This document shows positions 21,050 to 63,948 of a stretch of 64,000 nucleotides of DNA, piece after piece (the stretch's first letter is position 1; every line of letters starts with the position of its first letter). The stretch is from an uncultured Methylococcaceae bacterium. GTDB lineage: Bacteria; Pseudomonadota; Gammaproteobacteria; Methylococcales; Methylomonadaceae. Under the pieces are notes generated by a model that was not told the origin of the DNA, did no database searches, and saw only the letters and a program-made list of their open reading frames with translations. The stretch spans positions 3,039 to 67,038 of the forward strand of contig CAIZMK010000056.1 in assembly GCA_903934035.1 (NCBI GenBank). The letters are read 5' to 3'. The translations under genes were made by a program, and so were the position numbers.

Positions 21050-21745
21050 ATGAGTACTATCCATTTTGTAGGCGGAGAAAAAGGCGGTGTTGGTAAATCA
21101 GTGGTCGCACGTTTATTAGCGCAATACATGATTGACCATAACCTGCCTTTTATTGGTTTTGATACCGATAAATCACATGGATCATTATTGCGTTTTTATA
21201 GCGACTACGCTGCACAGACCATAATCGATGACTATGAAAGCCTAGATGCCATTATCGAAACAGCCAATGCACAACCTGAGCAACGTATATTAGTTGATCT
21301 TGCCGCACAAACCCACCAACCCTTAGCGCGTTGGTTAAATGAATCAGGCGTATTAGAATTAGCCGAAGAACTGGGCATTAACATCTGCTATTGGAATGTC
21401 ATGGATTCAGGCAAAGATTGTGTAGATTTATTAGATAAATTACTCACTCAATTCGGCACACACCTTAATTATGTACTAGTACAAAATCAAGTCCGCGACG
21501 AGCAATTTAATATCCTAGAACATTCTGGCGTTAAAGACAGGGCATTAGCTTTTGATGCCAAAGTCATGACCTTAAAACGTTTACATAGCCCTGTCATGAC
21601 CAAAGTTGACAGCAACAGCTATAGCTTTTGGGCCGCCAAAAACAAAGATACCGAGAGCCTTCATCCTTTAGGTTTGCTAGAAAGACAACGCATGAAAATG
21701 TGGCTAAACCATGCTTACCATGAAATTGCGAGTATCGGTGTTTAA
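21050..21745 (+). CDS. ParA/MinD-like (SIMIBI) P-loop NTPase of unknown function
   Basis: Deviant Walker A GGEKGGVGKS, GFDTD, ILVDLAAQ. Confidence 0.8.
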   Translation: MSTIHFVGGEKGGVGKSVVARLLAQYMIDHNLPFIGFDTDKSHGSLLRFYSDYAAQTIIDDYESLDAIIETANAQPEQRILVDLAAQTHQPLARWLNESGVLELAEELGINICYWNVMDSGKDCVDLLDKLLTQFGTHLNYVLVQNQVRDEQFNILEHSGVKDRALAFDAKVMTLKRLHSPVMTKVDSNSYSFWAAKNKDTESLHPLGLLERQRMKMWLNHAYHEIASIGV

Positions 21746-23816: not shown

Positions 23817-24264
23817 ATGGCTACAACTAATAACATTATTCACACTGCCTCGTTTTTAATTGCTAGCTAACAATTAAAACAAGTCGCTAGTTTTAATTTC
23901 TTATTAAGCTAAAGTATTGCTAATTACTTACTAATAACTTCAGCTACGAAGCAAAAAAAATATAAATCCTTTGTAATAAATAACTTACATATTTATACTT
24001 TACCTTTACCAAATTAATTTACTTTATTAACCGTATAGTAGAAATAGTTTGTTTACTTTTTTATTCTATGCAATACTTAGAAAAACCTAGCATTATTGCT
24101 AGACTTACTCTCCCTTCTACAATACCAGTTAGCACACCTAGATTTCCTACCAGCTCCTTAGCTGTTTGGTCTTTTCTGAGCTTTATTACTCATAGCAACT
24201 GAGTTTGATGTTCTAGTTAACAAATTTATGCACCTAGCTCAGCGATTTTTCATTGCATTTGTCG

Positions 24265-24632
24265 ATAGAATGTCAAATCGACGAGAAGAATATTCAACCG
24301 AGCCAAAAGAACATTAAATCAATGAGAAGAATATTAAACTGGCCCTAAAGAACATTGAATTGCTGAAAAGAACATTTAATTAACCCTAAAGAACATGAAA
24401 TCTATTTAAAGAACATTCTGTTAGCCTTGATGATCATTAAATCGATGAAAAGCACATTCAATTAACCCTAAAAAACATTGAATTGCTGAAAAGAATCTCC
24501 AATTGCCCCTAAAAAACATCGAATTGCTGAAAAGAATATTCAATTGCCCCTAAAGAACATTGAGTTGCTGAAAAGAACATTAAATCGCTGAAAAGAACAT
24601 TCAGCTGTCATTAAAGAACATTAAATTAAAGT
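24265..24632. repeat. Non-coding tandem array of 18 units alternating 20 and 21 bp (41-bp higher-order period), core AAAGAACATT
   Basis: Core G/A positions 24268, 288, 309, 329, 350, 370, 391, 411, 432, 452, 473, 493, 514, 534, 555, 575, 595, 616 give spacings 20/21 alternating with one 20/20. Confidence 0.92.
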
Positions 24633-24708
24633 ATAAATAACTAGCAGTAAAACGTGCCAAACAGGACATATTCACTTTAACACTCACATCAACATAACAG
24701 GTATCACT

Positions 24709-25323
24709 ATGAAAAGATCCAAACCCGTTTTCGATTTTGCTCAGTATCCTATGTCAGGAAAAGTGACTTTCTTTCGCCATGTTAATGACCAGTTATACGG
24801 CAATCCGCTTTATCCCACACCTGACATTACCTTTGCCGATGCAAAAGCAGCAGTCGATGCCTTAGAAGCTGCAATACTGGCAGCAAAGCATGGCGGGGTA
24901 ACCGCTGTGTCAGCAATGCATGATGCAGCAGATCGTGCAGACACGCTTTATAGAAACTTAGCTCATTATGTAGAACGCACAGCCGCAGGCGATGAAACCA
25001 GTATATTAAGCAGTGGTTTTCATATTTCTAAACAACCGGTCTTAACACCTAAAGCAGAGCTCTCAGCCTTTGATGGTGAGCATACAGGTGGTGTTAGATT
25101 AGTGGCTAAAGCCTTATTGGGAGCTGTAGCCTATCTATGGCAAATGGCTATAGATGACGGAACAGGAACGGGGCTGGTTTGGATTGCTATCGGCAGTACT
25201 ACACGCGCCACTTTTGAGATGAATGGTTTAGAAATCATGAAGCGTTATAAGTTTCGTTTTGCCGCAGTAACGCCTGCGGGTACCAGCGATTATTGTGAGC
25301 CGGTTACAAAGATCATCGTCTAA
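24709..25323 (+). CDS. Hypothetical protein: N-terminal helical region plus C-terminal FN3-like beta-sandwich, no signal peptide
   Basis: GNPLYPTP...AVDALEAAI...LAHYVERTAAGDETSILSSGF, then VAYLWQ...GLEIMKRYKFRFAAVTPAGTSDY (FN3-like GL...Y.FR..AV...G.S). Confidence 0.7.
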   Translation: MKRSKPVFDFAQYPMSGKVTFFRHVNDQLYGNPLYPTPDITFADAKAAVDALEAAILAAKHGGVTAVSAMHDAADRADTLYRNLAHYVERTAAGDETSILSSGFHISKQPVLTPKAELSAFDGEHTGGVRLVAKALLGAVAYLWQMAIDDGTGTGLVWIAIGSTTRATFEMNGLEIMKRYKFRFAAVTPAGTSDYCEPVTKIIV

Positions 25324-63339: not shown

Positions 63340-63948
63340 CTAAGGCGTACAGTTGACAACAACTTCATTACTAAAGCTACCTATCTCTTTATCTTTCAAG
63401 ACATAAACAGCACTGTAACGACGTAATTCTGGCTTACCTAATTGCAATAGGGGGCGCACATCCATAAAAGGTGAAACGCTGGCTCGATGCAACAACTGCC
63501 AATCGACATCAGCACCTCGCATACTATAAATATTAACGCCATCACTGTTATATTTACTGAAATTTAAAGCAACCACTCCATCTGCCAAGTCATTTCCACT
63601 TAATTCTGGAATAGAGGTGCTGAGATCATGATTATTTTTTGTGCCCACAATATTCAGCTGAGCACCTAAGCCATCACTATAAGTAGACCTTGCTTTAATC
63701 CTGCGAACCTCCGCCCTAATTAAGCTTTCTGTATTGTTACGGCTAGCATTTTTGTCGATAGTCGCTTGTTTAGCTAAAGCATTTGAATCATTTAGATGAG
63801 CAATCTTAGCGTGAAAATCAGCACTGGCGGCTTTCAATGCCTCTAAATCAGTGACAGCAATTTCTGTATCACTACTCATTTGTGCTAAAAAATGATCGGA
63901 CCAGACCAAAAGATCATTATCGGCAGTTGGGATAAAATCAGACATCAT
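63340..63948 (-). CDS. Hypothetical protein: N-terminal helical region plus C-terminal FN3/Ig-like beta domain
   Basis: FIPTADNDLLVWSDHF helical N-terminus; DGVNIYSMRG...W.LL...SPFMDVRP...RRYSAVYV...GSFSNEVVV beta-rich C-terminus. Confidence 0.65.
   Translation of the reverse strand: MMSDFIPTADNDLLVWSDHFLAQMSSDTEIAVTDLEALKAASADFHAKIAHLNDSNALAKQATIDKNASRNNTESLIRAEVRRIKARSTYSDGLGAQLNIVGTKNNHDLSTSIPELSGNDLADGVVALNFSKYNSDGVNIYSMRGADVDWQLLHRASVSPFMDVRPLLQLGKPELRRYSAVYVLKDKEIGSFSNEVVVNCTP

Follow-up and report, generated by a model that had tools for sequence, protein, structure and literature searches.

A phased array of 20- and 21-bp repeats upstream of an FN3-family gene in an uncultured methane-oxidizing bacterium

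The window analyzed here is a 64,000-nucleotide stretch of contig CAIZMK010000056.1 (C56 below), part of the MAG of an uncultured Methylococcaceae bacterium (GCA_903934035.1; 3.19 Mb in 295 contigs, 98% complete) whose nearest relative in the genome collection is Methylococcales bacterium AMbin126. A non-coding tandem array stands directly in front of a gene for a small two-domain protein, and the locus is made up of the following features, all on the forward strand:

24033–24119, forward strand: conserved promoter-like box, about 150–230 bp upstream of the array, recognized in an alignment of 12 paralogous or orthologous loci that have different arrays
24265–24632, forward strand: tandem array of 18 head-to-tail units, A-rich on the gene strand
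24633–24708, forward strand: spacer or leader of 76 bp between array and start codon, conserved among close paralogs (by eye)
24709–25323, forward strand: gene for a 204-aa protein of the family we call famA, with an N-terminal helical bundle (about residues 15–101) and a C-terminal FN3 sandwich (118–202)

Cut at its cores, the 368 bp of the array resolve into ten 20-bp A units with the consensus AAAGAACATTAAATCGATGA and eight 21-bp B units with the consensus AAAGAATATTCAATTGACCCT, and the two classes alternate to give a 41-bp dimer. The core of the units is AAAGAACATT. With cores matched to AAGAACAT at no more than 2 mismatches, successive core starts are spaced 21, 20, 21, 20, 21, 20, 21, 20, 21, 20, 21, 20, 21, 20, 20, and 21 bp apart, the sole break in the alternation being the adjacent 20-bp A units at 24552 and 24572. 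Unit columns 1–9 are the best conserved, being kept in 13–18 of the 18 units, and the most variable is column 11 (C/G/A), which distinguishes A from B units. TRF reports periods of 41, 82, and 123 with scores of 186–311, and a genome search with a two-core pattern gave 14 matches versus 0 for the reversed control. The array is also present, with 18 units and 2–3 SNPs, on an independent metagenome contig, a JGI record encoding a 100% identical protein. A reading of the stretch from its sequence only had already described this anatomy, and the details bear it out: the unit counts, the total length, the near-perfect alternation, the conserved 10-bp core with a variable half that recurs in two classes, and the end of the array 76 bp before the ATG at 24709.

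Several familiar kinds of repeat do not fit. The array is non-coding, as the sequence-only reading had it: the one ORF that spans it is a trivial 40-aa frame with a TTG start on the minus strand, and the 20- and 41-bp periods are incompatible with a reading frame. A coding repeat was likewise rejected for the 21-bp arrays of Bacteroidota described below, whose variable columns are, by eye, out of step with codon positions. That the array is not a CRISPR was also correct, as units abut, unique spacers are absent, the variable halves recur as two classes, and no Cas family was found among the ten ORFs scanned with Pfam between 21050 and 29216. Arrays of the REP/BIME type are rejected because every unit is in direct orientation and lacks a unit-length palindrome, and a hairpin between A and B units (ATTGAAT with ATTCAAT) is rejected because the degenerate units do not, by eye, keep the pairing.

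For the protein encoded at 24709, AlphaFold predicts a three-helix bundle at the N-terminus and a seven-strand sandwich at the C-terminus (pLDDT 87.8). Foldseek matches the sandwich to FN3 domains only, and on this model the protein carries a genuine FN3 fold. The helical domain modeled alone (pLDDT 84.7) has no Foldseek match below E = 1, and a profile search of PDB sequences gave nothing convincing (best E 0.005). It belongs to no Pfam or NCBIfam family, PADLOC gives no match, which led us to reject a defense system, and PHROG returns a weak match only (E 0.002), over the C-terminal domain. No signal peptide is seen by eye, a manual count puts the charge near neutral rather than basic, and no nucleic-acid-binding fold is recognizable.

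The gene had been described from the sequence as an orphan, FN3-like one; the predicted structure agrees with the second term, and the presence of at least 14 paralogs disposes of the first. By tblastn and an iterated profile, this MAG has 14 full-length famA paralogs plus one split over two contig ends. A profile search of 1.84 billion cluster representatives returned 185 famA matches at E ≤ 1e-30, and more than 100 of the best 150 cluster representatives (50% identity) are full-length at around 200 aa. Homologs come mostly from Methylococcales metagenome bins, with others in Flavobacterium, Paludibacter, and further Bacteroidota. A second family, famB, is defined by the protein encoded at 63340–63948 in the window; it is multi-copy, with 11 copies in this genome, and 19 of 151 genomes in the order (5 of 43 genera) have it. 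A sister genus has family members in closed genomes (1–2 contigs). The sequence-only reading had listed the 63948 protein among homologs of the 24709 protein before which an array might be sought. This relationship is not detectable: BLASTP finds no similarity between the two proteins, hhalign gives a weak profile–profile signal (E 0.06), and there is no array within 1.5 kb upstream of this famB gene.

The arrangement of array and gene recurs well beyond the window. In a sister species, the orthologous array has 17 units and keeps the 20/21 alternation, with flanks and gene shared; the edge units of the two arrays are orthologous, and the inner units are different. The count is also 17 in a second metagenome lineage, whose protein is 93% identical. 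A Crenothrix polyspora MAG has 17 units of AAAGAACATCAAACCGCGCA about 80 bp before a homolog in a different neighborhood, with Tex upstream and an SbcC-like gene downstream, and this pairing despite changed surroundings indicates that array and gene travel together. Across loci, we found no conserved neighbor gene or regulator beside the array–gene module. The array carriers are lake methane-oxidizing bacteria, an environmentally important group, and Bacteroidota.

Profile-guided scanning of metagenome contigs yielded 80 loci, with array counts on 77 of them. An array is upstream in 57 of the 77 and downstream in 1, and the best periods are all 20, 21, 40, 41, 42, 63, 83, 84, 105, 123, or 126. 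After clustering at 90% identity and retaining loci with at least 500 bp of upstream sequence (n = 41), 28 non-redundant homologs have an upstream array, some of them Bacteroidota-like, and all their periods are multiples of about 20–21 bp. These arrays are 56–430 bp long (median 272) and end 68–258 bp from the ATG (median 106). Of 30 famB loci, 12 are preceded by an array, whose period is 21 or 42 in 11 cases, and none is followed by one.

The sequence of the arrays is far less constant than their layout. Paralogs at about 80% protein identity have recognizably diverged versions that keep the A/B dimer, and in more distant homologs the sequence is unrecognizable against the window array. Arrays are still found at homologous positions when protein identity falls from 100% to about 44%, Bacteroidota-like loci included. 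Bacteroidota homologs have 21- and 42-bp arrays upstream, in whose units the 12-bp palindrome TTCCAATTGGAA or one closely resembling it recurs at 21-bp intervals. Period, position, length, and A>T polarity are kept while array sequence turns over. The array would evolve by gain, loss, and homogenization of whole units and 41-bp dimers, and the sequence would drift for that reason. The view that spacing is conserved over sequence, put forward from the window itself, is thus supported by the sister species, the Crenothrix MAG, and the 28 of 41 non-redundant loci, and at the orthologous locus of the sister species the array is neither absent nor irregular. A universal AAAGAAYAT core across phyla was rejected, as no famA or famB gene was found beside matching arrays. 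Long 20/21-bp arrays with this core do occur in Corallibacter, Tannerella, Nostoc, Oscillochloris, and others among 185,579 genomes scanned; 21-bp arrays seem to be many and chance matches are plausible, so we draw no conclusion from them.

Within the genome, TRF finds about 46 phased arrays with periods of 20, 21, 40–42, or about 84 and mutually unrelated sequences. Among the 52 tandem arrays of at least 60 bp, 27 have a period of 20, 21, 41, 42, or 84, and none has a period of 16–19, 22, 25–40, or 43–47. A genome-wide search located the repeat family of the window at three further loci: a 20/21-alternating array split between contigs C164 and C214, a pure 20-bp array split between C4 and C264, and four units before another famA gene, split between C182 and C85. 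Other array sequence families recur as well, AAAGAACAT at four loci, GGATTGTTCT.. at four, and GGAAGACAAA.. at two. An array lies within 1 kb upstream of 8 of the 25 famA and famB genes versus 22 of 2515 other ORFs (odds ratio 53, Fisher p 1.3e-10), the first of these counts being a lower bound because many family genes sit at contig ends; none of the 25 has an array downstream. In short-read assemblies, the arrays coincide with contig ends, and gene callers annotate them as spurious ORFs.

Another idea is that the arrays are neutral or selfish minisatellites, produced by slippage or unequal recombination with a bias to units of about 21 bp and piling up in long intergenic regions. Inner units do differ between close lineages whose edge units are orthologous, strict 20/21 alternation would be automatic if the amplified unit were the 41-bp dimer, many arrays in the genome adjoin unrelated genes or stand alone, and arrays coincide with assembly breaks at contig ends and have REP-like elements at their flanks. 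Against this, homologous positions are kept down to about 44% protein identity, Bacteroidota-like loci included, placement is one-sided and constrained in distance, polarity is conserved, and array length is alike (17–18 units) in three lineages. A neutral minisatellite would not be expected to persist even among paralogs at about 80% identity, and we know of no mutational mechanism that selects 20–21 or 40–42 bp. Because persistence, one-sided and distance-constrained placement, and polarity are left unaccounted for, neutral expansion does not explain the data, and we regard it as very unlikely.

The periods themselves point to the double helix. At the 28 non-redundant loci with arrays, they fit a turn of 10.5 bp best, with a mean residual of 0.07 turn versus 0.19 for 10.0 bp and 0.29 for 11.0 bp. 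A curved-DNA property, one of the options raised from the sequence, is borne out by prediction: under a wedge model with Bolshoy–Trifonov parameters, the ratio of end-to-end distance to contour length is 0.51 for the array versus 0.84 ± 0.09 for shuffles and 0.86 for random genomic segments. In tests of 168 bp, the lowest 5% of genomic windows takes in 15 of 22 phased arrays but just 2 of 20 with other periods (Fisher p 1.5e-4), a difference that is not independent evidence because any whole-turn period yields predicted curvature.

In our preferred explanation, tentative and given slightly less than an even chance, the array would serve as a helically phased platform of curved and/or protein-coated DNA that controls the 24709 gene. 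It would be a cis-acting DNA element of that gene, a lattice of direct repeats in which the 20–21-bp unit, usually paired as a 40–42-bp dimer, would span two or four helix turns. One option is that a dimer-sized DNA-binding or nucleoid protein polymerizes side by side on the array; the other is that the array serves as an intrinsically curved upstream tract. Under either option, it could set the promoter activity of the gene or block RNA polymerase coming from the upstream box. We infer this action at the DNA level, with protein binding and transcriptional regulation by the array, chiefly on two grounds. The period of two or four turns common to all arrays equals the pitch of abutting dimers; when DNA-bound dimers abut, they are usually spaced 20–22 bp apart, examples being iterons, the parC repeats of pSK41, and OmpR/PhoB sites. 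Second, the Bacteroidota arrays bear classic dimer-type palindromes, and a 12-bp palindrome of their form is typical of dimeric DNA-binding sites and incapable of forming an RNA hairpin. The linkage to two gene families, the persistence of arrays among paralogs, the predicted curvature, and the lack of excess RNA structure also speak for the DNA reading. Dyad symmetry is enriched in some arrays; as a general array property it was rejected, being seen in only about 10 of 25.

Some observations count against a DNA platform. Array sequences vary between loci, which would call for many specific binders or else a read-out of DNA shape, and pure 20-bp arrays would spiral round the helix instead of staying on one face. 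There is no evidence for the 24709 protein as the array binder; its charge is near neutral (manual count), and its helical domain shows no known nucleic-acid-binding fold.

Known DNA elements with similar geometry give a partial precedent. Plasmid iterons (7 × 22 bp in the R6K gamma origin; also in pSC101, F, P1, and RK2) are contiguous direct repeats of about 17–22 bp, close to two turns, with a conserved core and a variable remainder; one protein binds them side by side, and they are often intrinsically bent. The arrays share with iterons the tandem direct repeats of 17–22 bp (here 20/21 bp in 18 copies). They differ in lacking a Rep initiator gene and plasmid or phage surroundings, in their copy number (5–20 versus 3–7 in iterons), and in being chromosomal, at dozens of loci, with differing sequences and a tie to an FN3-protein gene family. 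A plasmid or phage origin was rejected, as no DNA or protein matches were found.

Plasmid centromeres of types II and I offer a comparable layout, for instance pSK41 parC with 4 × 20 bp and R1 parC with 10 × 11 bp (both bound by ParR), and F sopC with 12 × 43 bp. Such arrays lie directly upstream of an operon whose small product binds them and autoregulates, and the coated array forms a superhelix (PMC5016525). The array described here has similar architecture, and the centromere periods of 20 and about 43 bp are close to its own, but no par operon follows, and the flanking genes include no ribbon-helix-helix ParR, ParM, or ParB/SopB. A weak ParA-like ORF at 21050, 3 kb upstream of the array, is absent beside the module elsewhere, and the N-terminal domain of the 24709 protein has no structural match. 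An iteron- or centromere-like element of the plasmid type, also suggested from the sequence, is thus not borne out by any Rep, ParR, ParB, plasmid match, or conserved ParA neighbor.

Curved A-tracts, UP-like elements, and sigma-54 UAS elements have in common with the arrays their upstream position, helical phasing, and predicted curvature, but the arrays are far longer and more regular, and their sequences are array-specific. A sigma-54 enhancer was rejected because none of the 25 family genes in the genome has a −24/−12 promoter (GG-N10-GC, at least 9/12 matches) in the roughly 640 bp before it; the single sigma-54-type match near them is at −644 of one gene. LytTR sites combine 9–10-bp repeats with a 12-bp spacer at a 21-bp pitch, comparable to the 10-bp core and 10–11-bp variable part here, and we take the core ACATTNAAT to resemble Pln/Agr-type boxes. 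They were rejected, as PF04397 has 0 matches in the 98%-complete genome, with controls positive. The intergenic TAACTGA heptamer repeats of Beggiatoaceae, Cyanobacteria, and Bacteroidetes (PMC4679880) have a period of 7 rather than 20–42, and both they and the arrays spread over gammaproteobacteria and Bacteroidota.

What lies between and before the array and the start codon raises the question of whether the repeats are transcribed. The 76-bp spacer shows the conserved pattern ACTAGCAGTAAAACG ... TTCACTT ... ACAGGTA..CTATG with an AGG Shine–Dalgarno-like motif, and a consensus scan found no sigma-70-like site inside the array or the spacer. The box at 24033–24119 reads as a sigma-70 promoter, with TTGTTT (24049–24054), a 17-nt spacer, and AATACT (24072–24077), the last preceded by the extended −10 sequence TATGC; AAAAAC and a short CTAG..CTAG dyad come next. 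It is oriented toward the array and gene and, from its sequence, may act as a promoter. If it is the promoter of the gene, the array is transcribed within a leader of about 600 nt. With nhmmer, the box is found in the genome only on C56 and C38, the two closest paralogs. No RNA structure is conserved downstream of the box, and a small RNA there was rejected for lack of a consensus structure. The Bacteroidota promoter motif TAnnTTTG upstream of arrays was also rejected, its frequency being, on a rough estimate, not above chance.

On the gene strand, A exceeds T in 21 of 22 independent arrays within 200 bp of an ATG, and the mean AT skew of these arrays is +0.23 versus 0.002 ± 0.084 in upstream intergenic DNA (Mann–Whitney p 9e-10). 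Together with the box, this polarity suggests a different explanation, the main rival though less probable in our view, in which an mRNA would start from the box (at about 24080) and the array would form most of an A-rich, unstructured 5′ leader of about 600 nt that acts post-transcriptionally. It might, for example, offer many binding sites to an RNA-binding protein, as a landing pad or a sponge (candidates being Hfq-, S1-, Csp-, and CsrA-like proteins and the FN3 protein itself), or it might control stability or translation. A transcribed RNA would account for the A>T polarity better than a symmetric DNA platform, and likewise for the presence of the upstream box without a clear promoter from array to gene. 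The conserved TTGTTT-17-AATACT box points into the array in paralogs with differing arrays, and no recognizable sigma-70 or sigma-54 promoter intervenes between array and ATG. Reading the core gives AAG-AAC (ARN-type) triplets, and some paralogs have, by eye, a terminator-like hairpin with a U-run between array and ATG, which would be sensible only with transcription from upstream.

As RNA, array plus leader shows no excess structure against shuffles, with z of +1.36 for the sense strand and −0.74 for the antisense strand; a sense RNA less structured than shuffles is as expected of a single-stranded platform. A structured or known RNA was rejected, as an Rfam search of the array gave no real match and the fold is no better than shuffles on either strand, so the earlier suggestion of a repetitive RNA does not hold in its structured form. 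CsrB/RsmZ and CrcZ RNAs, like the TAACTGA repeats, resemble the arrays in repeating a short motif many times in non-coding sequence before genes, with an A-rich sense strand; the units here, by contrast, lack GGA, and there is no GGA/CA-motif hairpin, no excess structure, and no Rfam match.

Other observations speak against a leader role. An RNA function gives no reason for periods in multiples of 20–21 nt across phyla, and perfect Bacteroidota palindromes with centers of 0–2 nt cannot be RNA hairpins. Arrays of the same periods in the genome at large have no polarity toward a co-oriented gene (the A-rich strand points toward it in 18 and away in 17), the box is confined to one subfamily, and the polarity near family genes could descend from one ancestral array. 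The DNA and RNA readings are compatible, in that an array lying within a leader and coated by protein could be a roadblock.

The number of paralogs suggests yet another role, as recombination or gene-conversion boundaries for the exchange of FN3 cassettes, or as a lattice on which the FN3 protein itself assembles. Trypanosome VSG genes, with 70-bp repeats upstream, provide a model for the exchange. The family is multi-copy (14 famA and 11 famB genes), individual array sequence families recur at several loci, and array and gene move together. Most paralogs, on the other hand, bear different arrays, so homology for exchange is lacking, and there is no linked expression site or recombinase. Assembly of the FN3 protein on the array is disfavored by a protein that is not basic (manual count) and a helical domain that matches no nucleic-acid-binding fold. 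We consider these roles highly improbable.

Returning to the DNA platform, a broader form of it would make the arrays a new class of cis-element: sequence-free, period-locked lattices of 5–20 two-turn units that would form a switchable nucleoprotein or superhelical structure controlling the FN3 family in no fewer than two phyla (Pseudomonadota and Bacteroidota). Taken furthest, this form would have the FN3 protein or another partner polymerize on the array with one dimer per unit. We rate this broader form as unlikely. The literature yielded no description of 20–21- or 40–42-bp arrays tied to a small FN3-protein family, and the pattern of period-locked, sequence-variable arrays before FN3-family genes is apparently undescribed. 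The arrays stand a fair chance of being a distinct class beside phased tandem binding and curvature arrays.

If the arrays are functional, selection would preserve their geometry, that is, unit length, phase, polarity, and distance to the gene, and not their sequence, and ordinary motif-based searches would be unable to see such elements. The array–gene module is small and portable. Its arrays mark an uncharacterized protein family that reaches up to about 14 copies per genome in methane oxidizers and Bacteroidota.

A conserved promoter-like box lies upstream of the array and is common to paralogues whose arrays differ. Its layout is TTGTTT-17-AATACT with an extended -10, followed by AAAAAC and a CTAG..CTAG dyad.

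Window 24033-24119, conserved promoter-like box
Window 63340-63948, minus strand, protein of 202 aa belonging to famB, the second multi-copy family

The famB family numbers 11 copies in this genome, and 19 of 151 genomes from the order encode members of it. Arrays of 21/42 bp stand upstream of 12 of the 30 famB loci elsewhere, and the window copy has no array within 1.5 kb upstream.

Across the whole genome (G000), approximately 46 non-coding tandem arrays have periods of 20, 21, 41, 42, or 84 bp, with mutually unrelated sequences, and these account for roughly half of the tandem arrays of at least 60 bp. Many of them coincide with contig ends, apparently as a result of breaking the assembly. 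Genes downstream of some of them are unrelated, including PQQ-dehydrogenase-like, TerD-like, and RAYT-like ORFs (assigned by eye).

Example phased arrays in G000, by contig
C128:2152-2462
C136:23-283
C89:1910-2168
C82:236-569
C14:12618-12845

REP-like palindromes (GTAGGCCGGAATAAG.., GGGCGTATGCAATACGCCC) occur on the flanks of the other AAAGAACAT arrays in G000.

C4:300-420, REP-like palindromes beside a AAAGAACAT array
C264:19100-19260, the same
C214:330-450, the same

Among loci from other genomes and metagenomes (L numbers), one subfamily (~58% identity) of homologues of famA, the family of the 24709 protein, carries a PAS/sigma-54-activator gene immediately 3′ (L118:3368-4756 and L144-type loci). 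Upstream of the homologue at these loci TRF detected no array, but a degenerate periodic tract of ~21 bp can be seen there by eye. In one subfamily, the famA gene is often followed by a small protein of ~140 to 180 aa with a hydrophobic N-terminus (..YGLVGGFxKGIxNMLGRTGCGVADL..), present at L103:4102-4521 and at 10 of the 80 metagenome famA loci and absent from the window.

Upstream of Bacteroidota homologues, the public annotation predicts genes for 139 and 150 aa (L116:1762-2181 and L120:1982-2434, respectively) that fall wholly inside 21/42-bp arrays. These are probably spurious ORFs because the variable columns of the arrays are out of step with codon positions.

Long non-coding arrays of 6 to 20 units of 20 or 21 bp, likewise beginning AAAGAAYAT, also occur in distant phyla, with no famA or famB genes near them.

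L062, L067, L104, Corallibacter vietnamensis
L050, Tannerella
L039, Nostoc
L082, L044, L056, L065, Oscillochloris
L075, L107, Bacteroidota MAGs

Within the Corallibacter unit lies TAACTGA, a heptamer that PMC4679880 discusses. Given the large universe of 21-bp arrays, the AAAGAAYAT start in these distant phyla could be chance.
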